64,000 nt of DNA from Candidatus Omnitrophota bacterium (lineage in GTDB: Bacteria; Omnitrophota; Gorgyraeia; Zapsychrales; Fredricksoniimonadaceae), in assembly GCA_037131245.1 (NCBI GenBank), contig JBAXRK010000001.1, forward strand, positions 152,385-216,384. The letters are read 5' to 3'. Of the stretch, positions 10,453 through 54,157 are shown piece by piece; position 1 is the first letter of the stretch; every line of letters begins with the position of its first letter. The notes under the pieces are model-generated. The model saw only the letters and a list, made by a program, of their open reading frames with translations. It was not told where the DNA came from and searched no databases. Made by a program: the position numbers and the translations under genes.

Positions 10453-10470
10453 AGCCTTCAGCCTCTTTTA

Positions 10471-11463
10471 TTATTCGTCGGCTTCGCTCAATCCCGCCAG
10501 CAGACAACCACGGGCCGTCGCGTAAAGGGGCTCATCGGCCAGCCGGACATCAGCGATATCGATCGGCAATGTCACCTTCTTGAGCTCTTCCTTGAAGACG
10601 TCAACGAATCCGCCGATCATACAGGACCCGCCGGCACACACGATATCGATCGCCTCGGGAAATTGCGGCATTGATTCAGCTTTTTCGAACTTGTTCTTAA
10701 TGTTCACCAGCGTATAGTTGATCAGATTGCGGTAATAGATGCAAACCGCCTCTTCTTCGCGGCCATTGGGCTTGTGGATATTGATGCCTTTTTCCTTGAT
10801 CGCCGTCGCGCGGGTGGTCTTGATGCCCAAAACCTGCGCCACGTTGCGGTCGATCCAGTCGCCGGCGCGACTGGTGGCGAAACTGATCGCGGGGATCGTG
10901 CGGTACGATACGCAAATGTTGAACATGCCGCCGCCGCCCGAAATGCCGATGCCGGTAAAATCCTTGTCTTCCAGCGACGCGAAAACGACCGCGTGGCCTT
11001 CATTCATGGGCTTGGGGTTATAGCCCAGGTTCTTCAGCGCGCCAACAATGACGCTGGTGTGATAAACGATATTGAACGTCGCGTCCACCGGATCGGCGGG
11101 GATCGAAAAATAACACAGCTGATTCTTCACGTCGGGCTTGCCCAGCACCGCTTCGATCAAAAGGCCGAAGATCGGCACCGCGTCCGCTTCACCCGGGCTC
11201 ATGACGCCATCCGACATCGGGCGGCGCACGACCTTGTTCATGATATTCGCCAGCTCAAAGGCGGAATCGCCGAGCACATACACCTTATTGCCCATTTCAG
11301 CGTACTGCACTTTCTGCTTCTTGAGCATGTTCTTGGTGAATGAATTCGCTTCGATGTCCAGGAAACAATGGCGCATGAGCTTCAGCTTGATCTTGCCGTC
11401 AGCTCCCTGCTCGGCCCCGACCAGGTTCATTGTCCCGACGTCCAACCCTTTGACTTTACCCAT
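10471..11463 (-). CDS. Actin-like ATPase (MamK/Mad28 class)
   Basis: GLDVGTMNLVG, GIGISGGGGMFNICVS, IVCAGGSCMIGGF and the C-terminal ARGCLLAG motif match the actin/MreB/ParM fold signature order. Confidence 0.8.
   Translation of the reverse strand: MGKVKGLDVGTMNLVGAEQGADGKIKLKLMRHCFLDIEANSFTKNMLKKQKVQYAEMGNKVYVLGDSAFELANIMNKVVRRPMSDGVMSPGEADAVPIFGLLIEAVLGKPDVKNQLCYFSIPADPVDATFNIVYHTSVIVGALKNLGYNPKPMNEGHAVVFASLEDKDFTGIGISGGGGMFNICVSYRTIPAISFATSRAGDWIDRNVAQVLGIKTTRATAIKEKGINIHKPNGREEEAVCIYYRNLINYTLVNIKNKFEKAESMPQFPEAIDIVCAGGSCMIGGFVDVFKEELKKVTLPIDIADVRLADEPLYATARGCLLAGLSEADE

Positions 11464-12304: not shown

Positions 12305-12327
<23 letters not shown>
11491..12327 (-). CDS. Coiled-coil protein with basic disordered N-terminus
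   Basis: N-terminal 60 aa are R/S/G/A-rich. The centre is long heptad-like E/K/L sequence. Basic tail RARARGHYYKTGTKQ. Overlaps the ParA-like gene end by 23 nt. Confidence 0.7.
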
Positions 12328-13063
<736 letters not shown>

Positions 13064-28578: not shown

Positions 28579-29947
28579 GAGCCGCTCCCGTTAATCTGGC
28601 CGTTAAGGCCTTCATGCCCGCTTCATCCATTTTACCACCCAGGAAATACAAGCGGGCTTCGCAGGCATATAGCGCGGCCTTCAGTTCCTCAACAGCATTC
28701 AGCGTGTTAAAACGGGCCTCACGCGCGTCTTCCAGGTCCATGACCGATCGACGGCCTTCATTATAAAGAGGCAGCAAGAGTTCAACGGCTTTAGCGGCAT
28801 CCTCAGCCATTGCCCGGACGACGGGATAATTCGCCCGCAAAGCGTCGAACCGGGCGCTTTCCCGGCTGATATCAACCGCTGTCGCATCCTTGAGCGCGGC
28901 GGCCTCGTTTTGGGCGCGGCTTAAAAGAGCAACGGCTTCTTTCTGCCGGCCGGCGCGCGTCCGGTCAAAGAGCGGCAGTTCCGCGACGATCCCACCCGAC
29001 GCATTATTGCCCCCGTGGCCAAAAAGATCGTGACGGTTATTCGTGCCATCCGCGGTCAGGGTAATGGTGGGCAAAGCGCTGTCTTTCGCGCGCTTAACCT
29101 CTTCCTGGCCGGCATTGATCCGGGCACCGGCCGCCACAAAGTCAGGGCGCGACGCCACGGCTTTTTCCAACAAAGCAACAGCGTCAGTATCTGCGAAATC
29201 CGCGTCCGGCAGCGCCGCGGGAAGCGCGATCTCATTCTTGATCGGCTCACCCATCATGATATTAAGCAGCATCCGCATCGCTTTCACCTGTCGGAGCATA
29301 TCATTCTTTGCCTGACTGAAACGTCCGTACCGCACACGGGCGGCATAATAATCCGCTCCGAGCACAAGGCCCTTATCTTTTAGCGTCTCAGCTTTCTTAA
29401 GATCAGCCTGCGCGGCTTTTTCGGCTTCTTCGGCGGCCACAAGCAGGCGGTCCATCGCCAGCGCGCTGGTAAAAGCATCGTGCGCCATCAGGAACGTTTC
29501 CATCTTCACAAAAGCTTCATCGGCCTGCGCGGCCTTGACCTGTTCGCGGGCAACGCGAGCGCGGCGGACGGTCTGCATCGCGTCGAACAATGGCCAACGC
29601 AAATGAACACCGCCCTGAAGGTCGCGCTGATGCCGCGGCGTATTCAAGCGGTTAAGATCAAAGTCAGCGGATGTAAATCGTTCCTGGCGCAGCAGCATGC
29701 CGAACACATTGACCGGGTCATCGCTTTCGGTATAACCGGCCGATATCGACACGCCCGGCCAGAAACCGGCGGAGGCCTGCATTTCGCGGGCCCAGCTTAA
29801 CTCCACATCAGCTCCAGCGGACTTTAATTTAGGATAATGATCGAGAACCTTGACGTAAAATTGATCAAAGGAAAGTGGCGCGGCAAGAGCAGGTAAAGAC
29901 AGCGCCGCGCAAAAAATGAACGTTATAACGATCGCGCTCCATCTCAT
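28571..29947 (-). CDS. TolC-like outer membrane efflux factor
   Basis: I place the start at the internal ATG 29947..29945 (MRWSAIVITFIFCAALSLPALAAP signal peptide). That ATG overlaps the upstream TGA (ATGA). Two-fold repeated helical/beta layout. 8-nt overlap with the RND gene. Confidence 0.8.
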   Translation of the reverse strand: MRWSAIVITFIFCAALSLPALAAPLSFDQFYVKVLDHYPKLKSAGADVELSWAREMQASAGFWPGVSISAGYTESDDPVNVFGMLLRQERFTSADFDLNRLNTPRHQRDLQGGVHLRWPLFDAMQTVRRARVAREQVKAAQADEAFVKMETFLMAHDAFTSALAMDRLLVAAEEAEKAAQADLKKAETLKDKGLVLGADYYAARVRYGRFSQAKNDMLRQVKAMRMLLNIMMGEPIKNEIALPAALPDADFADTDAVALLEKAVASRPDFVAAGARINAGQEEVKRAKDSALPTITLTADGTNNRHDLFGHGGNNASGGIVAELPLFDRTRAGRQKEAVALLSRAQNEAAALKDATAVDISRESARFDALRANYPVVRAMAEDAAKAVELLLPLYNEGRRSVMDLEDAREARFNTLNAVEELKAALYACEARLYFLGGKMDEAGMKALTARLTGAAHE

Positions 29948-30300
29948 TGTTCGAGCCCCTTCTCCACAGCTATTGCGACCGTTTCCACGCAACCCACGCA
30001 TGACAATTTCTTGGCGGCGCGGATCTCTTTGCATTTGGTCGACCCGGCAACAGACAGCAGCGAATTCTCACATGCCCGCACCTGCTCGGGATGATCTTTT
30101 TCAAGAAGGACCCTGGCGGCGTACAAAGCGCCGCACTCTCCATCGGGAGCCCGCCCTCCGCCACAAGTCGCGCACTTTTCGACCACGTCCTGCGAGAGGG
30201 CGAACTGGTCCTCAAACGCGCGAACAACCGCCTGGGCACAGTTCAGCTTTTGATACCCCGGCTTACCGATGTAATGCGCTTTGGCTTTCTCGACAGACAT
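29944..30300 (-). CDS. C_GCAxxG_C_C family putative redox protein
   Basis: 118 aa. LNCAQAV..., CATCGGG...ECGALYAA..., KCKEI..., SCVGCVE cysteine pattern of that family. Confidence 0.65.
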   Translation of the reverse strand: MSVEKAKAHYIGKPGYQKLNCAQAVVRAFEDQFALSQDVVEKCATCGGGRAPDGECGALYAARVLLEKDHPEQVRACENSLLSVAGSTKCKEIRAAKKLSCVGCVETVAIAVEKGLEQ

Positions 30301-30301
30301 T

Positions 30302-30931
30302 CTACCCCCTTAGTCCCGTCATGATAAATATCGTGAACTTCCGCTTCTTTCCATCGGCGTCGGGCTTTGACATTTCGGCCGCCGGATGGTCCCGCAGATC
30401 TGCAAAACCGGCCTCAATGAATTGCGCGCGCAGCGCCGCCCGATCGAACCCGTGATGATGGACGCCTTGATGATCATCGTGAAAGCGCCCCTGCTCGGGG
30501 TCCAGGTCCGTGACCGACAGGATCCCGCCTGAATGAAGCGCGTCGTAAAGCCTTTTTAACAAAAACCCCGTATCCTTCACATGATGCAAGGCCATGTTCA
30601 CGGCAATAAAATGATATTTCCCGGGGATCGGCCCGGCATGATCCTGATCAATGAACAGGGTCCTGACCCGGGCAACACCTTCACGATGGATCTTCTCTTT
30701 AAAAACGTCCAGCATGACCTTTGACGCGTCGGCGCCGGTGACCGAACGGACCTTGGGGCGGAGCGCCAGCGCCAGATTCCCGGTGCCGCAGCCAAAATCC
30801 AGCATGTCCATGGAAGGTGTCAACGCAACGTAGCGGACGATAGCCCGAGCTACTTCCCGCGCCAACTTCAGGCGCGGCGGCGTATCCCAAAAGGCAGCCG
30901 CTTTGTCGAAGCCATGCAATTCCTCGCTCAT
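30302..30931 (-). CDS. Class I SAM-dependent methyltransferase
   Basis: Motif I MLDFGCGTGNLAL, followed by VTGADASKVML and FIAVNMALHH. Confidence 0.8.
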   Translation of the reverse strand: MSEELHGFDKAAAFWDTPPRLKLAREVARAIVRYVALTPSMDMLDFGCGTGNLALALRPKVRSVTGADASKVMLDVFKEKIHREGVARVRTLFIDQDHAGPIPGKYHFIAVNMALHHVKDTGFLLKRLYDALHSGGILSVTDLDPEQGRFHDDHQGVHHHGFDRAALRAQFIEAGFADLRDHPAAEMSKPDADGKKRKFTIFIMTGLRG

Positions 30932-31242
30932 AACGCCCCCTTTTGCAATTCCATCGCTTTTAATCTCGGGCAGTTGATCTTGAGCCTCTTTCCCTTAATG
31001 AGCGCCTCCCCGATCTTGGCATGAGCGCGCGTCACAATATTCCCGAAAGTCTGACGCGAGATCTTCATCTGTTTAGCGGCGTCTTCCTGATAAAAACCTT
31101 CCACGTCAGCCAGGCGCACAGCTTCCAGCTCATCGACCTCAAGCACGACTTCCTGACGCGCGTGCGGCGGAATGCCGCGCGGGTCAAAATAGAAAGCCTT
31201 CAGGTCAAGGCAGATCTTACGGCTCTTACGCGGACGCGGCAT
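30928..31242 (-). CDS. DUF134/UPF0251 putative DNA-binding protein
   Basis: MPRPRKSRKI... N-terminus and a sigma-70 region-4-like HTH LEAVRLADVEGFYQEDAAKQMKISRQTFGNIVTRAHAKI. Confidence 0.7.
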   Translation of the reverse strand: MPRPRKSRKICLDLKAFYFDPRGIPPHARQEVVLEVDELEAVRLADVEGFYQEDAAKQMKISRQTFGNIVTRAHAKIGEALIKGKRLKINCPRLKAMELQKGAL

Positions 31243-31259
31243 AACGCTCCTTCAAACAG

Positions 31260-31281
31260 ATTATTAGCATATGCCAATAAT
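31260..31281. promoter_or_regulatory. 22-bp near-perfect palindrome (candidate operator)
   Basis: ATTATTAGCATATGCCAATAAT: arms ATTATT/AATAAT and core GCATATGC are symmetric, with one mismatched pair. It overlaps the -10 of the DUF134 operon promoter. Confidence 0.5.
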
Positions 31282-31305
31282 ACCCTATGGCCATCGATCT
31301 GTCAA
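31277..31305 (-). promoter_or_regulatory. Candidate sigma70 promoter of the DUF134-methyltransferase-TolC-RND operon
   Basis: Minus strand reads TTGACAgatcgatggccatagggTATTAT (17-nt spacer). GAAGGAG lies 4 nt before the ATG at 31242. Confidence 0.55.
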
Positions 31306-31333
31306 GAAAAACGAGCGGCTGGCAGAAGAACCC

Positions 31334-31362
31334 TTGACATGCCCCGGCGTGCCTGCCATACT
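31334..31362 (+). promoter_or_regulatory. Candidate sigma70 promoter of fur
   Basis: TTGACAtgccccggcgtgcctgcCATACT (17-nt spacer), divergent from the DUF134 promoter. Confidence 0.45.
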
Positions 31363-31404
31363 CTATATAGGAAATGAAAACCATTACCTGTAAGGAATAC
31401 GGCC

Positions 31405-31878
31405 ATGAAAAACCATCCCAGCGAACTTCAGAGCAAGATCAACAGCCAGGGGTACCGGATCACCAAACCCCGCCAAAAGATCATTGACGCTTTAAGCCAT
31501 TCCAAGAACTGCCTGAGCGTTGATGATATTTACATGGCCATACGGGCCAAAGGAGATAGTGTCGGGGTCACCACGATCTACCGGGCGGTCGATAGCCTGG
31601 CCAAGGCCGGTATTATCAGAAAATTATCACTTATCAGTGGAAAAACCTCTTACGAGCTCATTGACCCTGAGCTTAAGCACCACCATCACCTGATCTGCCG
31701 CAGCTGCCAGCGGGTCATCGATTACTCTGACTTTATTAATGAAGAGGTACTGCTCATCAAGAAACTGGAAAAGATCGTTTCACAGACCCATCATTTTGAT
31801 ATTGAAGACCATATGCTGTCGTTTACCGGGCTTTGTCAGCTATGTCAAAAACCAGGATCAATGAATAAAGTGAGGTGA
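31405..31878 (+). CDS. fur: Fur-family metalloregulator
   Basis: wHTH (RITKPRQKIIDAL...VTTIYRAVDSL), HHHHLIC regulatory site, CRSC and CQLC structural Zn pairs. AAGGAA RBS. Confidence 0.85.
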   Translation: MKNHPSELQSKINSQGYRITKPRQKIIDALSHSKNCLSVDDIYMAIRAKGDSVGVTTIYRAVDSLAKAGIIRKLSLISGKTSYELIDPELKHHHHLICRSCQRVIDYSDFINEEVLLIKKLEKIVSQTHHFDIEDHMLSFTGLCQLCQKPGSMNKVR

Positions 31879-31883
31879 TCTAT

Positions 31884-32009
31884 ATGTATAGCCTACTCTT
31901 TAGAACAGGATGTTTCGTTGGCAGAGCGTTCTTCCCGGTTTTAGCCATTGGCGCTGTCGTTGCCGCGATCGTGATCGCCGCGTCAAAGAACACAGAAACC
32001 GAGAAGTAA
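31884..32009 (+). CDS. Small hydrophobic peptide (41 aa), below ORF-track cutoff
   Basis: Hand translation: MYSLLFRTGCFVGRAFFPVLAIGAVVAAIVIAASKNTETEK. GAGG lies 8 nt upstream inside the fur stop region. Followed by a hairpin. Confidence 0.4.
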   Translation: MYSLLFRTGCFVGRAFFPVLAIGAVVAAIVIAASKNTETEK

Positions 32010-32018
32010 CGTTACCAG

Positions 32019-32047
32019 GGCCGCAGCTGATCCTGATGGCTGCGGCC
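32019..32047 (+). terminator. Stem-loop after fur and the small ORF
   Basis: GGCCGCAGC-11 nt-GCTGCGGCC (9-bp perfect stem). No clear U-tract. Confidence 0.4.
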
Positions 32048-32063
32048 AAACTGCAATAATAAC

Positions 32064-32092
32064 TTGACACCCACACTTTAGTGTGGTAATGT
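32064..32092 (+). promoter_or_regulatory. Candidate sigma70 promoter with embedded inverted repeat, giving a leaderless Bro-N transcript
   Basis: TTGACAcccacactttagtgtggTAATGT (17-nt spacer). The spacer contains CCACAC-TTTA-GTGTGG. Only 6 nt separate the -10 from the ATG at 32099, and there is no SD. Confidence 0.5.
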
Positions 32093-32098
32093 TTATTT

Positions 32099-32929
32099 AT
32101 GAATAACGAGATAACCATCTTCGAAGATTACAAGATCCGCCGTATTTATGATGAGCCGACGGAAACATGGCACTTCTCCGTTGTGGACGTCATTCAAGCC
32201 TTAATTCAACAGCCTGACTACCAGACAGCCAGAAAATACTGGAATAAACTTAAAGAGCGCCTTCGTCAGGAAGGAAGTCAGTCGGTGACAAAATGTCACC
32301 AACAGAAATTGCTTGCGGCCGATGGTAAAAAGTATCTAACCGATGTCGCGACAGCGGAAATCCTTCTGCGCCTGGTTCAGTCCATCCCCAGCCCTAAAGC
32401 TGAACCGATCAAACTCTGGCTCGCCAAAGTCGGCTATGAACGCATGCAAGAAATAGCCGACCCCGCCCTTTCGCTTAACCGTGCCAGGGAAACCTGGAAA
32501 AAACACGGCCGCAGCTCTCAATGGATCCAGCAACGGATGCTGGGCCAGGAGACTCGCAACAAATTAACGGATTACTGGAAAGAGAATGATATTAACAAGC
32601 CTGACGAATTTGCCATTCTGACAAACATCATTCATCAGGAATGGGCCGAAGTCACTGTCAAAGAACACAAGGCCCTGAAGGGACTAAAAACACAGAACTT
32701 GCGCGATCATATGAACGAGGCGGAACTTATCTTTACCGCCCTTGCCGAAATGTCCAGCCGTAAGATCGCTGAAAGCGTGGAAGCCAAAGGCATGCCGGAA
32801 AATGCGCGGGCCGGCAAGAAGGGAGGCGGCATCGCCCGTAAAGCCAGGATCGAGTTAGAAACCGCCACCGGCAAGAAAGTCATTTCGGCCGGCAATTATT
32901 TGACGACGAAAGAGTTACCACGGCCGTAA
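32099..32929 (+). CDS. Bro-N domain protein (antirepressor-like)
   Basis: ITIFEDYKIRRIYDEPTETWHFSVVDVIQAL... and IQSIPSPKAEPIKLWLAKVGYERMQEI resemble the widespread Bro-N family. Visibly AT-richer than surrounding genes. The 3' end overlaps the convergent CDF-NifX gene by 15 nt. Confidence 0.7.
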   Translation: MNNEITIFEDYKIRRIYDEPTETWHFSVVDVIQALIQQPDYQTARKYWNKLKERLRQEGSQSVTKCHQQKLLAADGKKYLTDVATAEILLRLVQSIPSPKAEPIKLWLAKVGYERMQEIADPALSLNRARETWKKHGRSSQWIQQRMLGQETRNKLTDYWKENDINKPDEFAILTNIIHQEWAEVTVKEHKALKGLKTQNLRDHMNEAELIFTALAEMSSRKIAESVEAKGMPENARAGKKGGGIARKARIELETATGKKVISAGNYLTTKELPRP

Positions 32930-34009
32930 CCACTGGATACGGCTGCGGCCGAAACCGGTGGCCGCATTGGCTGAAGAAGCCATTTTCAAGCGACCGGCTT
33001 GATAATCCGCGAAGGTTGAGCCCACCGTCTGCAGCGTATCAAAATAATAGATCCTGACCCCCTGCCCTCTTAATTCCGAGAACATATGCGGTCCCACCTT
33101 CCCCGCCAGCACCACGCCGATCCGGCTCTCACGGACGATCGACCCGAGAATAATACTTTCTTCCACGTTATACATCCGGCTATTGTTAGCTCGGATCGAG
33201 GTGGTTTTTTTCTTAAGGTCGAGCAGGCAGAAATACGGCGCCCGCCCCAGCAACGTTGAGACCGGACCGTCCCACATGCCGGTTTCAGCCGGAATAAGGA
33301 TCATGTTGCGCCGCGCCAGTGTGTCCTCCACGCCGCGCGTAAAAACGAACATGATCGCAACCGCCAACGCCGCCAGCGAAAATGCCACGCGTTGTTTTGT
33401 TTCCAGAGAGACCTTGGCGCGCTCCTTTTCAAAATACTCTTTGAAGATCTGCATCGCGCCCTGGATCTGAAAGCCCCCGATCACGATCGCCCCGATCGGG
33501 TCACAGTAAACCAATCCCATGACCGCGAGAAATATCCCCAGGAACCCGAAACAAGCCGCGAAAAGATTCGTCTTGTTCTGGATCATGAACATAAATAAAT
33601 TGCTGTTCTTCGGATCGCGCTCCAGCGCTTTCGATGAGATGTAATACAAGTAGCCATTAGCCAGGATCGAAATTTTTGCGACCAACAAGGCAAAGAGTCC
33701 CGGGCGGGCCGGAATACGCGACACAATGATCGCGATATTATCCGCGCAGATCCACACTCCCGACAGGAACATGATCGCCCCGATCAGAATGCTCTGCGTC
33801 GCAAGAGAGAGCCTTTTGTCCCTGGCCCCGTGATAATTGATCCCGAACGCGAAACAATCCGAGAACGAATGCACCGCCTCAGCCACCAGCACTTTACTGC
33901 CGGTCACCAATCCCACCACCGCCTTGATCAGCGTCATACTGATGTGATAGATCAGGGACCAGGAAACAACCTTTTCCTGCTCAGCGGCATCGGCTTTTTT
34001 ACGGTTCAT
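32915..34009 (-). CDS. CDF-like membrane domain fused to a C-terminal NifX/NafY-like (FeMo-cofactor-carrier fold) domain
   Basis: Start moved to ATG 34009..34007, which overlaps the upstream TGA (ATGA). TM2-type AEAVHSFSD. No CDF cytoplasmic domain; instead an extra TM and LGRAPYFCLLD...GVVLAGKVGPHMFSELRGQGVRIYY. Confidence 0.7.
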   Translation of the reverse strand: MNRKKADAAEQEKVVSWSLIYHISMTLIKAVVGLVTGSKVLVAEAVHSFSDCFAFGINYHGARDKRLSLATQSILIGAIMFLSGVWICADNIAIIVSRIPARPGLFALLVAKISILANGYLYYISSKALERDPKNSNLFMFMIQNKTNLFAACFGFLGIFLAVMGLVYCDPIGAIVIGGFQIQGAMQIFKEYFEKERAKVSLETKQRVAFSLAALAVAIMFVFTRGVEDTLARRNMILIPAETGMWDGPVSTLLGRAPYFCLLDLKKKTTSIRANNSRMYNVEESIILGSIVRESRIGVVLAGKVGPHMFSELRGQGVRIYYFDTLQTVGSTFADYQAGRLKMASSANAATGFGRSRIQWLRPW

Positions 34010-34914
34010 TTCAATTTCCCCCGAATATGAACAAGGCACTTGCGGCATTTATCTCTTTTATCGCGCGCCGCCCCCTGCATCTGGCCGTCGCACCAGGTAT
34101 GGTCGATCTCCCAGCAATGCTTCCCATGATTGGGGAAAGACGGGCACTGCACCTGCCGCTCAGCGGGGCAATTTAAGATCTCCCAGCAATTCGACTTCAT
34201 CGTGGTCGAGCAATAAACCTTAAGGTCGCCGGTGCGCTTTTTCATCTCCAGGATCAATTTATCCCGCCCGTCCTTGCTATCAAGGTCCTTCCGGCCGATA
34301 TCCTCCAGGAACCCCTCCATGTTCTTGCAATAATCCCTGACCGCGTTAAGCAAATGCTTGGTGCGCGCGTTCACTTCCTCATCAGGCATCGCGTCGCGCC
34401 AGACCTCGAAACCGCCAAGCACGCGCCCTTTCTTATCGATCAGCGGGCCGGCGGAAACCACTATCGAATGCTCCCTGTTAATACGGTCGATCACCTTGAC
34501 CCTTTTGCCGATCACGGACTTGCGCGTTTTCATCGCCTGCTTGATCGCACAATGATTAGTGCACAGGTCGCTCTTGAAAATATCCGCGCAAACCACCTTT
34601 CCGATCGCGTCATTCAGGTTCAAGCCCGTAAAATCAAGACAGGCCGGATTCATGAACTGGATCTTCATATCCTTGTCGACCACGAAGAACGGATAGGTGG
34701 ACGCGCGTAAAATACTCACCGCGAAGGTCGCCATGTCTTCAAAATCACCGAAAGCCTTGGTCTTGGACGAAAGGAAGTCCAGGAAATCATCCTGCGCCCC
34801 ATCCTCACCCGAACCAGCCTTCTTTTTTGAACCGCGATGCTCTTCGGTGGTTTTAAGCGGCGCCTTTACCGCCCTGAGTTCACTGAGGATCTTGGCCATC
34901 CGGTCGAAGTTCAT
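34006..34914 (-). CDS. Stand-alone PAS sensor with C-terminal double CWE cysteine-rich (two-CW-like) domain
   Basis: PAS core FFVVDKDMKIQFMNPACLDFTG... with CADIFKSDLCTNHC. C-terminus NCWEILNCPAERQVQCPSFPNHGKHCWEIDHTWCDG...CRKC. Confidence 0.65.
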   Translation of the reverse strand: MNFDRMAKILSELRAVKAPLKTTEEHRGSKKKAGSGEDGAQDDFLDFLSSKTKAFGDFEDMATFAVSILRASTYPFFVVDKDMKIQFMNPACLDFTGLNLNDAIGKVVCADIFKSDLCTNHCAIKQAMKTRKSVIGKRVKVIDRINREHSIVVSAGPLIDKKGRVLGGFEVWRDAMPDEEVNARTKHLLNAVRDYCKNMEGFLEDIGRKDLDSKDGRDKLILEMKKRTGDLKVYCSTTMKSNCWEILNCPAERQVQCPSFPNHGKHCWEIDHTWCDGQMQGAARDKRDKCRKCLVHIRGKLK

Positions 34915-36712: not shown

Positions 36713-37426
36713 TTATATCGCCGCCGGCTTCAAGCCATTGATCTGATGGCAATTCGAACATACCCCGCGATACACATGCGGCATCTGGGTCGTATTGGCC
36801 GGGATCGTGATATCCGGCCTGACGACATGGCAGTTCTCGCACACACCGCGAAACTCATGAAGCATATTCGCGTCGCGGAAGATCGGCGGAGGCGTCACAC
36901 CCTGATTGAGCGCGATCTGTTGAAACCCGTTATTAGCCTTTGGCGCTACCGGGATCATCTGGCCGCAACGCGGGCAGCGCGTATAACCGCGGTTCCAGCA
37001 ATTGACATCATTGAATGTGAACTTGCACTGCGGACAAGTGAAGGTCCCCATCTGACGGCCCTGGCCGAAAGCCACTGGCTGCGCGGGGGGCGTCGCGTTT
37101 GGAAAACAATTCGTCACCGTTGGACAGGTCGCGCAACCCGGTGGAATAAAAGCGGCCGGCTGAGCCGGATTGGTGGTGGCGTTAGGAAAACATTGCGTCA
37201 CGGTCGGACATGTCGCGCAAGCCGGAGGAATAAAGGCCGCTTGCTGTGCCCCGTTCCCGCGCCCGACTGACTGGCCCGGCAATGGCACATTGCCACCCTT
37301 AAATAGGGCCGTGCAAAATAGCACGAATAATACCGTCACCGCGGCACCCGCCAGCCAGACATTCCTGGTGCCGGAACCGGTGCATTTCTCCCACGCTTTC
37401 TCGATCCCATCCTCATGATGCTTCAT
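36713..37426 (-). CDS. Double-magnetochrome protein with Cys-rich tandem repeat and zinc ribbon (MamT/MamP-like class)
   Basis: TM. Two copies of AAFIPP(A/G)CATCPTVT(Q/N)CFPNAT. CPQC...CPRC. HEFRGVCENCH and HVYRGVCSNCH. Confidence 0.8.
   Translation of the reverse strand: MKHHEDGIEKAWEKCTGSGTRNVWLAGAAVTVLFVLFCTALFKGGNVPLPGQSVGRGNGAQQAAFIPPACATCPTVTQCFPNATTNPAQPAAFIPPGCATCPTVTNCFPNATPPAQPVAFGQGRQMGTFTCPQCKFTFNDVNCWNRGYTRCPRCGQMIPVAPKANNGFQQIALNQGVTPPPIFRDANMLHEFRGVCENCHVVRPDITIPANTTQMPHVYRGVCSNCHQINGLKPAAI
37076..37240 (-). repeat. In-frame tandem duplication (~81 nt x2) encoding a CxxCx6C module
   Basis: aa 63-90 and 91-117 of the 237-aa protein are near-identical. Confidence 0.8.
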
Positions 37427-37444: not shown

Positions 37445-37888
37445 TTATCCCCCCGGCCGGACTCCCACCCGACCGTACACCAGCGTCTGTTGCCCGCCGC
37501 GCTCCACCGTGAACGTCACCCGTTCATCGATCCCTGTTGTCTGGACCAGATATTGAAACTGATCCTGTCCTGTCACGCTGGTCCCATTCCAGCGCTGCAG
37601 CACATCCCCTTCCTGAAGCCCAGCTTCCTCTGCCGGCGAACCGTTAAATATCCTGGATACCACTATGCCGCTGGCCGCGACCAGGTCATATTGCCGACGA
37701 AGTTCCGGTGTGAGCTCGATGGTCTCTACCCCCAGCCACACCCGGGGATCCACTGTCTTAAACCTGAAATTCCAGCCCTCGGCAAAAACCAATACGATAT
37801 AAATCAGCGCGATCAGAAGCAACCCCGCCACCATCGCCATGGACGACCCGCTGGGACCTTCTTTTAATGGGCGCGTGGTTGTGATCAT
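37445..37888 (-). CDS. Membrane-anchored single-PDZ protein
   Basis: Start moved to ATG 37888, which overlaps the upstream TGA (ATGA). TM MAMVAGLLLIALIYIVLVF. PDZ WLGVETIELTPELRRQYDL...SPAEEAGLQEGDVLQRWNG. Confidence 0.7.
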   Translation of the reverse strand: MITTTRPLKEGPSGSSMAMVAGLLLIALIYIVLVFAEGWNFRFKTVDPRVWLGVETIELTPELRRQYDLVAASGIVVSRIFNGSPAEEAGLQEGDVLQRWNGTSVTGQDQFQYLVQTTGIDERVTFTVERGGQQTLVYGRVGVRPGG

Positions 37889-38715
37889 TTGCTCCCCTTT
37901 GTGCCAACTCTGATCTTCACACTGTCGCACTTTACGCAATTAAAACACCGCACGCACACCGAACTTCCGGGATCATCGCTGATATTGATATCAACTGGAC
38001 AGTCCTGCCGACACTCCTGGCAATCCTTGCACTTCTTCGGGTCAACATCGAGCTGAACTAGGCTGTGACGGTTAAAGAATCCGAAGATCGCGCCCATCGG
38101 ACAAACCAGCTTGCAGAAAGGCCGTTTAGCAAAAACAAAGTAGGCGACGAACAAAGCCGCGATAAAGATCTTAAGAACAAATAACCAACCCAGTTTTTGG
38201 ATCGACACCGCCGGCTCACCGTACACCGGAATGGTCGGGTTCCAGATCACCCACGGCACTGCCGCTTGAATGGTCCCCATCGGGCAGAGCTTGGAGAACA
38301 TCGTTTCCTGCATAATGAACGGCAGCAGAATGACCAGAAGTCCCAGGATCAAATATCGAAGTCCGGCAAGTTTCAGCGGGATGCGGACCTTGAAGGTCTT
38401 GATCTTATAGAGCAGATCCTGAAGCAACCCGAACGGGCAAAGCCAACCGCAAGCCAAACTCCCCACCGTGATGCCGATCGCTGTCAAATACCCCGCCAGC
38501 AGATACGGGAATTTATGCATGGTCATGTAATGCTGAATGGTCCCGATAGGACATGAAAAAAATGCTGACGGGCAGCTATGGCAATTGAGGAACGGAACAC
38601 AGGAGCTCTTAAGCTCGCCCTGATAAACCTGCTTGGTCTTGAAGAACCCCAGATAAGCGTTCGTGACCACTAGCGTGATCCATTGCACCGCCTCTCTTAT
38701 TCTCTGCAAATCCAT
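37885..38715 (-). CDS. Membrane polyferredoxin, NapH/MauN-like 4Fe-4S protein (Mad6-like, tentative)
   Basis: Start moved to MDLQRIRE (ATG 38715, GGAG 7 nt upstream). CHSCPSAFFSCPIG, CGWLCPFG, CPMG, CKDCQECRQDCP, CVRCFNCVKC. Confidence 0.75.
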   Translation of the reverse strand: MDLQRIREAVQWITLVVTNAYLGFFKTKQVYQGELKSSCVPFLNCHSCPSAFFSCPIGTIQHYMTMHKFPYLLAGYLTAIGITVGSLACGWLCPFGLLQDLLYKIKTFKVRIPLKLAGLRYLILGLLVILLPFIMQETMFSKLCPMGTIQAAVPWVIWNPTIPVYGEPAVSIQKLGWLFVLKIFIAALFVAYFVFAKRPFCKLVCPMGAIFGFFNRHSLVQLDVDPKKCKDCQECRQDCPVDINISDDPGSSVCVRCFNCVKCDSVKIRVGTKGSK

Positions 38716-38719
38716 GGGA

Positions 38720-38851
38720 CTACTCCAATCCGATGCACGCCATGCACATGGTCGCGCCGTTATTCTGGGTTTCCAGCGCGTCATTCGCGCTGTCACCAAG
38801 CAGAAATAAAATAAATACCACGAACAAAACGATGATGACTTTCTTGTTCAT
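38720..38851 (-). CDS. Small membrane peptide (43 aa) with C-terminal CMAC, below ORF-track cutoff as an ATG-started unit
   Basis: MNKKVIIVLFVVFILFLLGDSANDALETQNNGATMCMACIGLE. Its ATG overlaps the upstream TGA (ATGA at 38848..38851). Its last codons supply the RBS of the next gene. Confidence 0.55.
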   Translation of the reverse strand: MNKKVIIVLFVVFILFLLGDSANDALETQNNGATMCMACIGLE

Positions 38852-39201
38852 TGGGCCTCGATCCAGGTCATGTTCTCTTTGCAGCGCGGGCATACCGGAA
38901 ATCCGGTCTTGCCGCAGGCCGGACACACAAAATTCCCGATGAACCCATTCCAGAACATCGCCACTTTACAGGTCGGGCAAAGAGGGACGCCTTTTTCCCC
39001 GCACCTCGGGCAAACCGCGCTCACATTGTGCTGGATGACTTTCATCACCACATTGCTTTTCACCAGCCCCCGCGCCGATAATGACTTGAACTTCCCTACT
39101 GAATAAGCGATGAACACAAAAACAAAAATAGCGAACAGCGCCCCCACGATCATCAGGCGGCTGCGGTCCTCATCGGCAATCTCGCGCATTTGGCCGGCCA
39201 T
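38848..39201 (-). CDS. Membrane-anchored double zinc-ribbon protein
   Basis: Start moved to ATG 39201 (TGATG overlap with the upstream stop). TM MIVGALFAIFVFVFIAY. CPRC-x7-CPTC and CPAC-x7-CPRC. Confidence 0.65.
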   Translation of the reverse strand: MAGQMREIADEDRSRLMIVGALFAIFVFVFIAYSVGKFKSLSARGLVKSNVVMKVIQHNVSAVCPRCGEKGVPLCPTCKVAMFWNGFIGNFVCPACGKTGFPVCPRCKENMTWIEAQ

Positions 39202-39908
39202 CAAAACACTCTCACTTTCGGCTTCACGCCACCGGCCGCGACCATCGGCGCGGCCACTGCCACCACTTCGTGCATCGCGCCGCCGCATTTCGGGCATTGC
39301 GCCGGCATGATCCCGTCAGCCGCTGTTTCAGAAATACGATAATCACAATCAAAGCAGATATAGAACTTGCCCTGAACGATACGGCCCAAATTCGCCTGCG
39401 TGTCAAAAGTCGCGCAAGCCACCGGCTTTTTACTCCCGGTGATCCCGAAATGCGCCGGAACATTCTCGGCGGTTAATTTCGTCAGTCCATCCGGAAAATC
39501 ATTGAGCGCCTGCCAGGCTGAGCCATGAACACCGGTATAAACCTCGATACGCGCCTGGTCAAAAACCCGGAATGGCTCAAACCCGACATTATTCCCCAGG
39601 ACCGCGTCGACCTTCATTCCGGCTATCATCTGGGCGCTGCGTAACCCGGCGGCATGCTGAGCATCCAAATATTTATTCGGTACCGCTTTATATGTTTTCT
39701 TGGCACGGTCGCAAATGATGTAGTAGGGCGCCCGGCCGAACAGATACGACACGGGACTATTGATGTCCGGTCCCGTTGCCGCGATGGCCACGATCACCGC
39801 TTTGCGTCTGCTTAAGATCACCGGATTGTCGTTCTCATAGAACGCCTGCCCGACCACCAGCGTGACGGCCGCAAAAAAAATCATTAAGAAGATCATTTCC
39901 CGGCGCAT
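39201..39908 (-). CDS. NifX/NafY-like (FeMo-cofactor-carrier fold) domain protein with C-terminal zinc ribbon
   Basis: Signal/TM. IVAIAATGPDINSPVSYLFGRAPYYIICD...VDAVLGNNVGFEPFRVFDQARIEVY. CFDC...CPKC. Confidence 0.75.
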   Translation of the reverse strand: MRREMIFLMIFFAAVTLVVGQAFYENDNPVILSRRKAVIVAIAATGPDINSPVSYLFGRAPYYIICDRAKKTYKAVPNKYLDAQHAAGLRSAQMIAGMKVDAVLGNNVGFEPFRVFDQARIEVYTGVHGSAWQALNDFPDGLTKLTAENVPAHFGITGSKKPVACATFDTQANLGRIVQGKFYICFDCDYRISETAADGIMPAQCPKCGGAMHEVVAVAAPMVAAGGVKPKVRVF

Positions 39909-40340
39909 TTATTTCGTATTCTCCTGGTCCACATGGATCTTTTTGTAATAATCGCACTTCACACAGGACTCTTTACAGTAGATCTTCTGATGACTCAAAT
40001 GCTCACGCAACGTGTAACATTTCTTGGTATCCGAAAGGAACACCACGCAGACTTTGCAATTATGGCTCTCTTTCTTTTTTGATCCCTGATGATATTCCCA
40101 GCAGCGCAGGAAATCATTCTCCATGCCCACCAGCTCCTCAGAGCGAAACGCATTGAGTCCGATCTTGTAGGTCTTAATAAAAGCGATCAGGTCCCCGCGA
40201 TGAATGCGCCGATGGCCCCCGGGTGTGCGGGTGGTCTTGAGCATTCCCTTTTTCGTCCAGTTAATGACGGAAAATCGCGTAACGTTACAGACCTTAGCCG
40301 CCTCGACCGTAGAGAAATACTCTTTCATTGTCTCCCCCAT
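39909..40340 (-). CDS. Excisionase/MerR-type HTH regulator with Cys/His-rich C-terminal domain
   Basis: YFSTVEAAKVCNVTRFSVINWTKKGMLKTTRTPGGHRRI. C-terminus CWEYHQG...HNCKVC...C...CKESCVKC. Confidence 0.7.
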   Translation of the reverse strand: MGETMKEYFSTVEAAKVCNVTRFSVINWTKKGMLKTTRTPGGHRRIHRGDLIAFIKTYKIGLNAFRSEELVGMENDFLRCWEYHQGSKKKESHNCKVCVVFLSDTKKCYTLREHLSHQKIYCKESCVKCDYYKKIHVDQENTK

Positions 40341-40389
40341 AGCTCGTTATACATATTTCACTTATTCTACTTATTCAACATTTGAAGGT
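40341..40389 (-). promoter_or_regulatory. Candidate promoter region with tandem direct repeat ACTTATTC x2 (40360..40376)
   Basis: Minus strand reads TTGAATaagtagaataagtgaaaTATGTA, with GAATAAGT repeated in the spacer. AT-rich gap directly after a terminator. Confidence 0.35.
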
Positions 40390-40420
40390 AAAAAAATGCC
40401 ACGAATCCCGTTCGTGGCAT
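40389..40420 (-). terminator. Rho-independent terminator ending the upstream mam-like transcription unit
   Basis: Minus strand reads ATGCCACGAA-CGGGA-TTCGTGGCAT followed by TTTTTT. 10-bp perfect stem, 7 nt after the stop at 40427. Confidence 0.8.
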
Positions 40421-49167: not shown

Positions 49168-49431
49168 TTACTCTTTGGCGATCGTTTTGGGATTAAGGTT
49201 GATGTGTTCGACGCCGACATTACATTCTTTGCAAACCCAGAGCTCGCGCTTGGCGGTGCTCATGTAAATACCGATAATGACCAGCGGAATACCCACCACC
49301 ATACCGACCCAGAACAGGGTCATCAGGATACCGGCCAGGATAATGAACCCGGCGGCCTTGCGGTTATAACGCGGACCGTTAAAAAGCTGCATTTCACCGT
49401 TACAATGTGAGCACTTGATCGCTTTAGCCAT
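49168..49431 (-). CDS. Membrane protein with split zinc ribbon
   Basis: CSHC...(two TM helices)...CKEC. 87 aa. Confidence 0.55.
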   Translation of the reverse strand: MAKAIKCSHCNGEMQLFNGPRYNRKAAGFIILAGILMTLFWVGMVVGIPLVIIGIYMSTAKRELWVCKECNVGVEHINLNPKTIAKE

Positions 49432-49686: not shown

Positions 49687-51300
49687 TTATTTGATCGCCA
49701 TGTGGGCGACGTTCGGATCCTGCATGCCATTATTCTGCGCGACTTCATTCTCGACGGCCTGTTGCTGCATTGGAACATTCTGCATCGCCACGGGTTGAGC
49801 CTGTACTGCCTGCGCCGGCGCGATCTGATGGCAATTGGAACAAACACCGCGATAAGCGTGCGGCATCGTCGCATTAGCGGCGATCGTGATATCAGGTTTT
49901 ACCGTATGACAATTTTCGCAAACACCCCGGAACTGGTGAGGCATCACCGCATCGCGAAAGATCGGCGGAGCACTGTTAGGCACGGGATTCGCCACCGGAG
50001 CGTTTTGGACCATGGCGATCCGCGACGCCGGATTGACCCGCTTCATGATCTGCCCGCAATTGGGACAACGCGGAAATTCATTCATGCCCTGCTCGGAATG
50101 CATCAACCAACCGCAATTGGGACATTTAAAACCATTGGTCATGTCCGGATTCGGGCTGAAAAAATTCGCCTGAGTGCCCATCATCATGGCCTGCTGACCC
50201 ATGGCCTGCTGAGCCATCGCTTGCTGAGCCATCGCTTGCTGACCGAAGGCCTGATTCTGCATCTGCATTTCCGGCTGTTCAACGAACGGGTTCACGAGAC
50301 GATTCTGATTCTGGGCCTGCATATCAAGCGCCATCGACCCGCCGCAATTCGGGCACTGTGGAAACCCATCGCCTTGCTGGCTACTTTTCATGCGCCAGTT
50401 ACAGATAGGACAAACATACGCCCGCTGGCCCCAACCGAACCAGCCGGCTTGCATTGCTCCCGCGCCCCCCTGGGCCATGGCTTGCTGTTGGGCCAACTGC
50501 TGCTGAAGGATCTGCTGCTGATACAAATAACCCGGGCCGTTGCCGTTATGAAGCATGCCGATGCCTTGAAAACCACCGGGGAGAGGACAAGTCGGTTGCT
50601 GAGCCTGCATCATATAATTCATCGGCATATTCTGCATGCCCATGCCTTGCTGCATCATATTTCCCTGCATGCCCATCGGCATATTCGCTGCCATCCCGCC
50701 GCCCATCCCCCCTACGGGGGCCATGCCTTGCATCTGCATTTGCTGTTGAACAGGAATTTGCTGGGCTTGCCCGGGCATCGGAGAGGCCGGAATTCTCGCC
50801 TGACGATATAAACTGATCACTTTCTGCGCCCGGCCCTGATACCCGCCGAACACCCTGATGCCGAACTGCGAAAGCGTATTGTAGGTCTGCTGATCCACAC
50901 TGCCGACGATGACCGCTTCCTCGCCCTTGCTGGCGATCAAATACGTCATCTGCTGGCTGGGCCCCTGGCCGAAATAAGGGTTCTTAACCACTTCCATCAA
51001 TTTCTTGTTGAGCGGATTGACGACCAGAAAATAACGGGCCTCGGACAAGGTCGGCGCGACAGGCGCCGCCAGCGAACGGCCGCCGGTCGCGATAACGATC
51101 ATCCCGCAAGCCGGGTTACCTTTGGCCGTGCCGGTCGATTCCGCCGAGAACAGGGCATATGTCCCGACGATCAAGATGAGCACGATCGCGGAAAAAATGA
51201 AGATAACGTTCAGGTCGGTATCCTTGAACCGTTCTTCGACCTTTGCCAGGATCGACTTAAGATCAATATTGAACGCGGCGCCCTCAGACTTCTTAGCCAT
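49687..51300 (-). CDS. Mosaic protein: TM + NifX/NafY-like domain + Met/Gln-rich low-complexity region + two zinc ribbons + two magnetochromes
   Basis: LSEARYFLVVN...AVIVGSVDQQTYNTLSQFGIRVF. aa 171-380 are Q/M/G-rich with QQAMAQQAMAQQAMGQQAM. CPIC..CPNC and CPNC..CPNC. HQFRGVCENCH and HAYRGVCSNCH. Confidence 0.8.
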   Translation of the reverse strand: MAKKSEGAAFNIDLKSILAKVEERFKDTDLNVIFIFSAIVLILIVGTYALFSAESTGTAKGNPACGMIVIATGGRSLAAPVAPTLSEARYFLVVNPLNKKLMEVVKNPYFGQGPSQQMTYLIASKGEEAVIVGSVDQQTYNTLSQFGIRVFGGYQGRAQKVISLYRQARIPASPMPGQAQQIPVQQQMQMQGMAPVGGMGGGMAANMPMGMQGNMMQQGMGMQNMPMNYMMQAQQPTCPLPGGFQGIGMLHNGNGPGYLYQQQILQQQLAQQQAMAQGGAGAMQAGWFGWGQRAYVCPICNWRMKSSQQGDGFPQCPNCGGSMALDMQAQNQNRLVNPFVEQPEMQMQNQAFGQQAMAQQAMAQQAMGQQAMMMGTQANFFSPNPDMTNGFKCPNCGWLMHSEQGMNEFPRCPNCGQIMKRVNPASRIAMVQNAPVANPVPNSAPPIFRDAVMPHQFRGVCENCHTVKPDITIAANATMPHAYRGVCSNCHQIAPAQAVQAQPVAMQNVPMQQQAVENEVAQNNGMQDPNVAHMAIK

Positions 51301-53779: not shown

Positions 53780-54157
53780 TTAAACTTTTTTCTCGCTACC
53801 CGGCTTAACCATCTTATGGGCAAAAGCCGCGATGACCTTACCTGATGCGAAAGCACCCCTTGAAACCATGCTATCGATCTTGGCCTTCTGTTTAACCAGA
53901 AAAGCGCCAACCACAGCCGGCTCTTTAACCGCCTCAACTGCCTTTTGGACAGCATTGGGCACAAGGTCAACAGCCGCCTGATCGCTGCTATGACTCTTTT
54001 TAACTAAGTCTAATACTGCTTTACGGGGGATGCGTTGATGGCCGCCAAGGGTGGCGGTGGATTCAAGTTTATGCTTCTTGACCCAGTTAAGAACGGTGAA
54101 ACGGGTGACGTGACAGATCTTGGCGGCTTCAGTAGTTGTTAAGTAATCGGTATGCAT
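53780..54157 (-). CDS. Excisionase/MerR-type HTH regulator, first gene of the cluster
   Basis: YLTTTEAAKICHVTRFTVLNWVKKHKLESTATLGGHQRI is paralogous to the HTH at 39909..40340. Confidence 0.7.
   Translation of the reverse strand: MHTDYLTTTEAAKICHVTRFTVLNWVKKHKLESTATLGGHQRIPRKAVLDLVKKSHSSDQAAVDLVPNAVQKAVEAVKEPAVVGAFLVKQKAKIDSMVSRGAFASGKVIAAFAHKMVKPGSEKKV

Follow-up and report, generated by a model that had tools for sequence, protein, structure and literature searches.

Our analysis of a 64-kb stretch of an Omnitrophota contig (JBAXRK010000001.1; "the window" below means all 64,000 nucleotides of it) shows that the minus-strand gene at 39201-39908(-) belongs to a family that is a conserved component of magnetosome gene clusters (MGCs) in Omnitrophota, Planctomycetota, and Hydrogenedentota and is restricted to such clusters. 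Judging from its sequence, the product is a membrane-tethered or exported protein, and its soluble part aligns as a full-length homolog of cytoplasmic NifX-ribbon proteins encoded in orange protein (ORP)-type gene cassettes of anaerobes and archaea. The protein probably handles iron in the formation of the magnetic crystal, and not iron sulfide specifically. On a narrower reading, which we consider to have an even chance of being right, it would be a lumen-facing, membrane-associated binder of inorganic iron species that is fed by cation diffusion facilitator (CDF) transporters and acts early in nucleation.

Pfam scans identify the window as an MGC, and the database entry that is 100% identical to the protein carries an Omnitrophota MAG annotation. 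The gene occupies exactly 39201-39908(-), starts with ATG, and encodes 235 amino acids (aa), in which the open reading frame (ORF), Pfam matches, homologs, and an AlphaFold model together delineate a hydrophobic N-terminal helix, a NifX-like domain, a linker with a His motif, and a four-Cys (C4) ribbon. An earlier note, made from the sequence alone, had read the ORF as a NifX-like domain with a C-terminal CFDC..CPKC ribbon. This holds: the match of residues 50 to 138 to PF02579 (Nitro_FeMo-Co; E 1.5e-15, 57.7 bits against a cutoff of 26.3) is far beyond chance, and the quoted peptides are present in the translation (FGRAPYYIICD, residues 57 to 67; VDAVLGNNVGFEPFRVFDQARIEVY, residues 100 to 124; CFDC, residues 185 to 188; CPKC, residues 205 to 208). 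The helix (residues 3 to 27; 39828-39902(-)), a putative signal anchor or cleavable signal peptide, is indicated by Kyte-Doolittle hydrophobicity (maximum at residues 5 to 23), by the model, and by a sequence motif. The NifX-like alpha/beta domain extends over residues 37 to 146 by its jackhmmer envelope (39471-39800(-)) and is followed by the conserved linker ENVPAHFGITGSKKPVAC (residues 148 to 165; 39414-39467(-)) and the ribbon (residues 178 to 217; 39258-39377(-)), which matches DUF7129 of Pfam below threshold (E 0.0011). In an alignment of 21 family members (alignment A1), the loop motifs of the fold (L56-F-G-R-A-P61, H85-A-A-G-L89, and N106-N-V-G-F-E-P112) are invariant, as are C66-D67, the linker residues V150, P151, H153 to T157, K160, and C165, and the ribbon residues C185, C188, C205, and C208; the conserved linker core reads VPxHFGITGSK. 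The invariance of all loop motifs argues for a retained ligand site.

A word-indexed homolog search yielded 62 matches, 100 to 49% identical to the protein and with PF02579 in 61 cases; most are unlabelled, and all those that carry an organism label come from Omnitrophota, Planctomycetes, or Hydrogenedentota. When 1.84 billion representatives were searched exhaustively with a hidden Markov model, only two full-length clusters of the family, plus fragments, were retrieved. With one genome scanned for each GTDB species, 13 loci were identified (10 in Omnitrophota, 2 in Planctomycetota, and 1 in Hydrogenedentes), all in metagenome-assembled genomes (MAGs) with magnetosome genes at the locus.

Gene order around the family is conserved as well. 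The next gene downstream encodes, in each of the 15 loci examined, a membrane protein with a double zinc ribbon, in the window a product of 117 aa (38848-39201(-); Zn_ribbon_6, E 1.1e-5). The stop codon of the NifX-ribbon gene overlaps the ATG of this partner in the sequence TGATG; as read from the sequence, the two genes are translationally coupled. A third gene, for a Mad6-like membrane polyferredoxin of the NapH type (37885-38799(-); Fer4_5, E 1.5e-14), follows in 14 of the 15 loci, that is, in every locus with sequence reaching that far. Where the locus sequence continues, the order across the three phyla is NifX-ribbon, transmembrane double ribbon, Mad6-like, PDZ, magnetochrome, CDF, and CDF, often with a PAS gene thereafter. 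In one related protein (P0146), a NifX part resembling ours (33% identity, E 3e-22) is fused to a double ribbon with 41% identity to the 117-aa product of the window, a Rosetta-stone fusion by which the NifX-ribbon and double-ribbon genes are functionally linked.

The AlphaFold model of the protein (mean predicted local distance difference test score [pLDDT], 80.8) consists of a helix (residues 3 to 27), a confident NifX-like domain (residues 39 to 145, mostly with a pLDDT above 90), and a three-stranded ribbon (residues 178 to 217, with a pLDDT of 86 to 91). Its best Foldseek match is the orange protein of Desulfovibrio gigas (2wfb; E 1.2e-9, TM-score of 0.89 over the ORP chain, root mean square deviation of 1.3 Å, 27% identity), followed by TM1290, TM1816, MTH1175, and PH0822; the matches to 2wfb, 1rdu, 1eo1, 1o13, and 2yx6 have E values from 1e-9 to 5e-5. 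A profile search of PDB matched 1rdu (E 7.7e-17) and 1eo1 (E 3e-16) and returned no NifX or NafY chain at E <= 0.01. A true NifX chain (9ian_F) appears in Foldseek only at rank 14 (E 0.043, TM-score of 0.52), and scanning of about 70 ORFs revealed no nif gene in the 64-kb window. The ranking in both searches places the modeled domain in the ORP/MTH1175/IssA branch of the fold and not with nitrogenase NifX.

In agreement with the earlier note, jackhmmer searches of all window ORFs and Pfam show that the window encodes exactly three NifX-like domains. The second belongs to a CDF core with a seventh helix (32915-34048(-); Cation_efflux, E 3e-16; Nitro_FeMo-Co, E 1.3e-7), and all 19 of its homologs, one from Ca. 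Magnetomonas plexicatena among them, have both domains. The third belongs to a 537-aa protein with 66 homologs (49687-51300(-); MCR, E 1.8e-14; Nitro_FeMo-Co, E 1.1e-5) that is composed of a transmembrane segment, a degenerate NifX-like domain, two ribbons, and two magnetochrome (CXXCH) domains. The first of these ribbons is 42% identical to that of the 235-aa protein. The glycine loop motifs are lost from the NifX-like domain of the 537-aa paralog, which may not bind the same ligand any more. Long low-complexity linkers rich in Gln, Met, Gly, and Ala (about residues 170 to 290 and 330 to 385) separate its NifX, ribbon, and magnetochrome parts. A protein with the order transmembrane segment-NifX-ribbon-ribbon-magnetochrome (P0171/P0302, from MGC locus L018) aligns to positions 8 to 217 of the family profile and, by its domain sequence, is a bridge between the family and the 537-aa paralog.

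After the orthologs, the next-best profile matches are proteins of 700 to 1500 aa with two PDZ domains and two to four NifX-like domains with interleaved ribbons, from Desulfamplus, other Deltaproteobacteria, and Planctomycetes MAGs. The giants among them (P0130-P0135; 940 to 1516 aa) have two PDZ domains and then three or four NifX-like domains alternating with three ribbons. In a Desulfamplus MGC (L016, 10001-13789), the gene for one of these (P0133) has a MamB-like CDF gene on one side and a trypsin gene on the other. A group of small membrane-anchored NifX proteins (P0136, P0139, P0140, P0146, and P0151) has an NVP[AT]H[FY]G linker in common with the family, and one of their loci (L017, for P0151) also contains PDZ, magnetochrome, and Fer4_5 genes.

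Relatives outside MGCs point to the origin of the module. Single-domain NifX-ribbon proteins that lack a membrane helix account for 13 of the 150 best representatives. We examined the loci of four generic relatives, three of them NifX-ribbon proteins, and all four lie in cassettes typical of nonmagnetotactic anaerobes. A Woesearchaeota locus (L019) contains DUF134, CDF, NifX-ribbon (MBD3248718.1, P0154), ferredoxin, CbiA-Fer4, and ParA genes; L020 contains a DUF134-NifX fusion, NifX-ribbon, two CbiA-Fer4 genes, and ParA; L021 contains ParA, a NifX protein with an IssA-like Gly/Arg tail, two CbiA-Fer4 genes, NifX, and DUF134; and L022 contains NifX-ribbon, a CDF-ZT_dimer-NifX fusion, CbiA-Fer4, and ParA. 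Such DUF134/CDF/NifX cassettes resemble the ORP cluster of Desulfovibrio, which is anaerobe specific and in which the orange protein partners MinD-type ferredoxin ATPases (PMC6345978). Residues 40 to 214 of our protein are colinear with the NifX-ribbon proteins of L019 and L022 (30% identity; E 3e-22 and 5e-19, respectively) over the NifX domain, the linker, in which an HxG motif is common to them, and the ribbon. The generic proteins differ in having no N-terminal helix, extra Cys and His residues in the ribbon (CxCxxCG..H..G.PC....CPxCG), and, mostly, the Cys of the FGRC motif. The same ribbon type is found again in the giant Desulfamplus proteins. At the position of this Cys, Ala is present in 96 to 100% of the target, magnetochrome fusion, and giant groups and in 95% of the CDF fusion group, as opposed to Cys in 60% of generic relatives. 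In L019 (4474-6561), one C-terminal Gly/Arg stretch plus ribbon (CxCxxCG..H..G.PC....CPxCG..M) ends the DUF134, CDF, and NifX proteins alike and looks like a common tag or cluster-binding module.

The earlier note had proposed that an iron-sulfur or iron carrier toolkit was recruited into this MGC three times over. Sequence comparison supports recruitment from a NifX-centred gene set of anaerobes, and the recruited unit looks like the NifX-ribbon module. Ribbon fusions and CDF fusions both have look-alikes, side by side, in the generic cassettes. The three domains of the window are not each other's closest relatives: identity among them is 23 to 28%, whereas between that of the 235-aa protein and small generic NifX-like proteins it is about 40%. 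In a neighbor-joining tree of 202 NifX domains (100 bootstraps), the three families are monophyletic (95, 99, and 93%), and deeper nodes have support of 28% or less, so that the tree cannot decide between one recruitment and several. The CDF moieties of the CDF-NifX protein and of the generic CDF-NifX fusion are not specifically close (E 0.003), which makes an independent fusion as likely as inheritance.

Sequence logic would place two of the three NifX domains of the window on the lumen side of the membrane. The 537-aa protein has a single transmembrane segment (residues 32 to 50), after which come the NifX domain, the two ribbons, and CXXCH motifs at residues 461 and 487, with no later transmembrane segment. 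Attachment of c-type heme happens outside the cytoplasm, and because the CXXCH motifs lie on the same side of the sole transmembrane segment, the NifX-ribbon module of this protein should be lumenal or periplasmic. The AlphaFold model of the CDF-NifX protein has seven long helices, the seventh at residues 215 to 246, and the NifX domain at residues 249 to 350; the CDF profile covers six helices (positions 4 to 195 match residues 39 to 215 in the L007 ortholog). Both termini of canonical CDFs are cytoplasmic, so a seventh helix after the six CDF helices would bring the fused NifX domain to the trans side. The generic CDF fusion of L022 retains a cytoplasmic ZT_dimer domain. At its N terminus, the 235-aa protein itself has a K/R-rich n-region and a hydrophobic core of 15 to 17 residues, and a [GA]-[RQK]-[AST] motif is found at residues 20 to 22 in most of 21 homologs. 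Among the magnetosome proteins described before, FmpB has a signal peptide (PMC12748827).

We propose that the NifX-ribbon module was taken into MGCs and shifted there to the noncytoplasmic, magnetosome-lumen side. This shift would have been achieved by an N-terminal signal or anchor in the 235-aa protein, by the seventh helix in the CDF fusion, and by an anchor shared with c-type heme domains in the magnetochrome fusion. The lumenal 235-aa protein would bind, noncovalently, polynuclear iron species arriving from CDF transporters, with iron-oxo/hydroxo and iron-sulfur species as candidates, and would hold them or pass them on during early crystal nucleation. Its ribbon might hold a metal (Zn or Fe) or serve as a dock for the partner ribbon protein. 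Relatives provide functional precedents. In Desulfovibrio magneticus RS-1, alleles of fmpA and fmpB without the FeMo-co-type domains lead to magnetite crystals that are fewer, smaller, or misshapen, and FmpA and FmpB are both enriched on early-stage magnetosomes (PMC4287615, PMC12748827). The homologous domain of IssA binds iron and sulfur as thioferrate, a ferric-sulfide polymer (PMC5524996), the orange protein holds a Mo-Cu-S cluster noncovalently, and the Di-Nase (FeMo-cofactor-type) domain of MrpORP holds a [3Fe-4S] cluster (PMC6345978).

Several points weigh against this proposal. The function is drawn from relatives only, and the Fe-O or Fe-S nature of the bound species is unconstrained by the data here. 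The charge bias over the helix of the 235-aa protein is weak (net charge of about +2.1 on the N side and +1.2 on the C side), so that its topology is not settled; the double-ribbon partner is more positive after its transmembrane segment, so that a cytoplasmic position of its ribbons would be expected under the positive-inside rule; and Cys4 ribbons are typically cytoplasmic. Residues 153 to 170, in the linker, have low confidence in the model, and the alignments behind the two AlphaFold models are shallow (21 and 16 sequences).

The most serious alternative is a possible one that we consider clearly less probable. The protein may be a cytoplasm-facing Fe-S carrier, with an N-out/C-in orientation in the magnetosome or cell membrane, that, like its ORP-cassette ancestors and like IssA and MrpORP, would store or deliver Fe-S clusters in the cytoplasm and specifically mature the [4Fe-4S] centers of the cotranscribed Mad6-like polyferredoxin. 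The constant position of the gene two genes upstream of the Fer4_5 gene fits this idea, as do the cytoplasmic location of the generic relatives, which are encoded beside ferredoxin and MinD-Fer4 genes, and the usual location of Cys4 ribbons together with the K/R enrichment after the transmembrane segment of the partner. There are also precedents, since IssA reconstitutes ferredoxin clusters and MrpORP passes clusters to ORP proteins (PMC5524996, PMC6345978). However, the homologous module of the 537-aa paralog lies on the same side as c-type heme motifs, the CDF fusion has an extra helix before its NifX domain, and FmpB is made with a signal peptide (PMC12748827). The N terminus of the protein, moreover, resembles a signal or anchor with a positive n-region, and none of the MGC-type domains has the Cys found in the generic FGRC motif.

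A wider evolutionary scenario extends the proposal of a lumenal binder, and we put it forward as speculative and rather doubtful. An ORP-type anaerobe cassette (DUF134, CDF exporter, NifX-ribbon carrier, and ferredoxin/MinD partners) may have been the ancestor of the iron-handling core of deep-branching MGCs, with the move of the NifX-ribbon module to the trans side as the key step toward IssA-like scaffolds. The MGC core would then consist of CDF transporters, NifX-ribbon modules, and ferredoxin-type partners, and single or tandem modules on the side trans to the CDF would keep a polynuclear iron precursor of the crystal bound to protein. In greigite producers, modules in tandem (up to four per protein in Desulfamplus) might be suited to sulfide-bridged species.

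Somewhat less probable still is a regulatory or structural role, in which the protein would be a membrane redox or iron sensor acting with the Cys-rich helix-turn-helix (HTH) protein, or a docking subunit, and its NifX domain would be no carrier. The HTH_17 gene in question (39909-40340(-); 143 aa; E 4.5e-8) lies immediately upstream, with zero-base spacing between its stop codon and the start of the NifX-ribbon gene, and it is found in 9 of the 15 loci, namely 8 from Omnitrophota, where it is thus present in most loci, and one labelled Planctomycetales (L011). In addition, the same ribbon type on DUF134, CDF, and NifX proteins in generic cassettes suggests a protein-protein tag, and the NifX domain of the 537-aa paralog has no glycine loop motifs. 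However, the trio of NifX-ribbon, double-ribbon, and Mad6-like genes persists without the HTH gene in L001 and L014 (Planctomycetota), in L002 (Hydrogenedentota), and in L005 and L015 (Omnitrophota), and the HTH gene was not seen in L013; the protein also keeps all canonical loop motifs invariant.

The earlier note had placed the gene second in a second transcription unit, after a Cys-rich HTH gene. Its position after that gene is as described, and a terminator-like hairpin (40420-40396) followed by a sigma-70-like promoter (40392-40364), both on the minus strand and within the 86-bp gap 5' of the HTH gene, fit such a unit. These are matches from a consensus scan (40364-40420(-)), whose counts do not exceed those in shuffled sequence, and only their position is suggestive. 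Two HTH_17 genes, 53780-54157(-) and 39909-40340(-), stand each at the head of a magnetosome gene block. The C-terminal half of the latter product is Cys rich (CKVC...C...C..C..C), and the protein may act as a sensor of metal or redox state.

The earlier note had speculated that the NifX-like proteins supply iron-sulfur species for greigite (Fe3S4) formation. This is improbable, and the distribution of the family, in magnetite-type clusters with magnetochromes, speaks against it. The idea draws on the nearest characterized branch, which includes the ferric-sulfide polymer binder IssA (PMC5524996), on the PDZ giants with two to four NifX-ribbon modules in MGCs of Desulfamplus MAGs, and on one family member in nS315_bin20, a genome reported to have both cluster types (PMC7602337). 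A residual lead comes from the Desulfamplus locus L016, to which no mineral type is assigned: no CXXCH motif is present in any ORF longer than 100 aa in the 10 kb that flank it on each side. Against the greigite idea, the cluster in the window encodes several magnetochrome proteins, and the L015 locus is syntenic with this cluster. Lin et al. (PMC7602337) list Fe3S4-type genomes, and that of the closest relative (nHGR_bin18, L005) is not one of them; SKK-01, the only imaged magnetotactic cell of Omnitrophota, makes bullet-shaped magnetite (PMC3840360); and FmpA and FmpB act in RS-1, which produces magnetite only (PMC4287615, PMC12748827). Least probable of all is a generic anaerobe NifX-like gene that merely sits beside magnetosome genes, as the nearby DUF134 and C_GCAxxG_C_C genes, which bracket efflux or arsenic-type genes like ordinary metal resistance cargo, might suggest: every full-length member whose context was examined lies inside an MGC, gene order is conserved over three phyla, and the family has invariant signature residues of its own, so that locus distribution and synteny effectively refute it.

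Pfam scans of the window also show LemA (MamQ-like), TPR (MamA-like), four further CDF (MamB/M-like), and trypsin-PDZ (MamE/O-like) proteins, three magnetochrome proteins in total, TauE, FeoB, HEAT repeat proteins, and actin-like proteins. MamQ-, MamA-, MamB/M-, and MamE-like, magnetochrome, and Mad6-like genes thus flank our gene, and the MGC setting is the same in 15 other loci. In one magnetochrome (MCR) protein of 237 aa (36713-37426(-)), a C-terminal module of a ribbon and two magnetochromes is 52% identical to residues 391 to 493 of the 537-aa protein; by sequence, this module is duplicated inside the cluster. A small protein of 87 aa (49168-49431(-)) has a CxxC motif on either side of a transmembrane helix, like a LITAF-type split ribbon, and its gene is conserved between the NifX-magnetochrome and PDZ-magnetochrome genes of L005 and L015. 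Two adjoining Volactin actin-like genes (8929-11463(-); E about 1e-79 each), one with an N-terminal extension of 180 aa, are followed by genes for a coiled-coil protein and for a ParA-like ATPase in which ferredoxin motifs are missing.

The DUF134 regulator (30931-31242(-); PF02001, E 9.8e-19) and the C_GCAxxG_C_C protein (29944-30300(-); PF09719, E 3.5e-7, 30.8 bits against a cutoff of 27) that the earlier note had seen elsewhere in the window are both present. Its statement that such genes often co-occur with small NifX-like genes outside nitrogen fixation stands for DUF134, which accompanies NifX-like genes in the generic cassettes, but not for C_GCAxxG_C_C, which was seen in none of the four. 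The DUF134 protein of the window is 40 to 41% identical to those of L019 and L020. Together with a gene for an S-adenosylmethionine methyltransferase, the two genes form a small minus-strand unit (29944-31242) upstream of an OEP/RND efflux system, and this unit sits between the two halves of the MGC. The DUF134 and C_GCAxxG_C_C pair is also found next to the MGC in the Omnitrophota MAGs L004 and L007, and C_GCAxxG_C_C only in L006. In L007 (6118-9388), the pair flanks arsenic resistance-type genes (ACR3/SBF, ArsP, and LMWPc), and this block adjoins the CDF-NifX and HTH/NifX-ribbon genes; in L004 (2490-3339), the unit is followed by a YeiH-like gene and the same efflux system. This resembles a variable cassette for metals or metalloids that is retained next to the MGC. 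A Fur family regulator gene and a BRO-N gene (31405-32929(+)) between the DUF134 unit and the CDF-NifX gene break the otherwise minus-strand cluster, and the BRO-N gene suggests a mobile element remnant. The plus-strand ORF 31021-31377(+), of 118 aa, has no family match, overlaps the DUF134 gene, and is probably spurious.

NifX/NifB-type domains in magnetosome proteins have been noted before, for FmpB in 2015 and for FmpA and FmpB in 2025 (PMC4287615, PMC12748827). Full-text literature searches turned up no other publication that ties a NifX domain to magnetosomes. To our knowledge, neither the compact transmembrane NifX-ribbon family, nor its invariant partnership with the double-ribbon protein and the Mad6-like gene, nor the occurrence of three distinct NifX domain families in one cluster, nor their apparent relocation to the lumen side and their link to ORP-type cassettes has been described. 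Inside the magnetosome, the route of iron between the CDF transporters and the crystal being built has yet to be explained, above all in groups other than the Alphaproteobacteria. Noted until now only in two proteins of one strain, NifX-like domains emerge as the one recurrent candidate cluster-binding module in MGCs of Desulfobacterota, Nitrospirota, Omnitrophota, Planctomycetota, and Hydrogenedentota. A member of 235 aa that is conserved over three phyla and has a clear cytoplasmic ancestor offers a tractable protein for biochemistry, and the seeming move of the MGC versions to the lumen side suggests, in concrete terms, how part of the magnetosome toolkit may have evolved.

With the nitrogenase proteins NifX and NafY and the C-terminal domain of NifB, the protein shares a Pfam superfamily and a general alpha/beta fold; it differs from NifX in having no nif genes nearby and a structural match far weaker than that to ORP. 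MTH1175 and IssA (PF2025 of Pyrococcus furiosus), by contrast, belong to its own branch of IPR003731/PF02579. MTH1175, described as an IssA-type protein without the tail (PMC5524996), is 33% identical to it (E 3e-16). An FGRA-type motif without the Cys is a further common feature, and the high isoelectric point (pI) set out for IssA (PMC5524996) is also found here (pI of 9.1 for the soluble part and 8.8 for the NifX domain). IssA is cytoplasmic and functions by means of a long cationic tail rich in Gly and aromatic residues, whereas our protein has an N-terminal membrane helix, a linker with a His motif, and a C4 ribbon, and its region after the NifX domain contains 10% Gly, with the folded ribbon inside. 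IssA-like Gly/Arg-rich tails do occur in some near generic relatives (48% Gly in the tail of P0226). The orange protein (ORP/Orp8) is a soluble cytoplasmic protein of 120 aa that binds a Mo-Cu-S cluster and has neither a transmembrane segment nor a ribbon. The generic relatives sit with CbiA/ParA-ferredoxin ATPases, as in the ORP cluster with Orp3, Orp4, and Orp9 (PMC6345978); the operon of our gene has no MinD-ferredoxin ATPase, and the sole ParA-like gene of the window (12305-13063) has no Fer4 match.

Among magnetosome proteins, Mad9 was considered on account of the position of the gene after a Mad8-like HTH gene. Mad9 carries a bacterial-type ferredoxin Fe-S binding domain (PMC9840458); our protein has no Fer4-type Pfam match, and this identity was rejected. 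The closest parallel is with the Fmp proteins of D. magneticus RS-1, which combine a transmembrane segment or signal peptide with a dinitrogenase FeMo-cofactor-type (NifX/NifB) domain (PMC12748827). Like FmpA and FmpB (DMR_41090 and DMR_41100), our protein is encoded in an MGC and has this combination, and the large MGC proteins with PDZ domains, multiple NifX domains, and ribbons look like members of the Fmp class. That class has PDZ domains, and FmpB also magnetochromes, in the same polypeptide, whereas our protein has none and such domains are encoded by neighboring genes. Compared with FmpA and FmpB, which are taken here as described in the literature, it is a protein of 235 aa with a single terminal C4 ribbon that forms a family of its own (95% bootstrap support) in different phyla. 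In these phyla, it would be the counterpart of the NifX-like domains of FmpA and FmpB.

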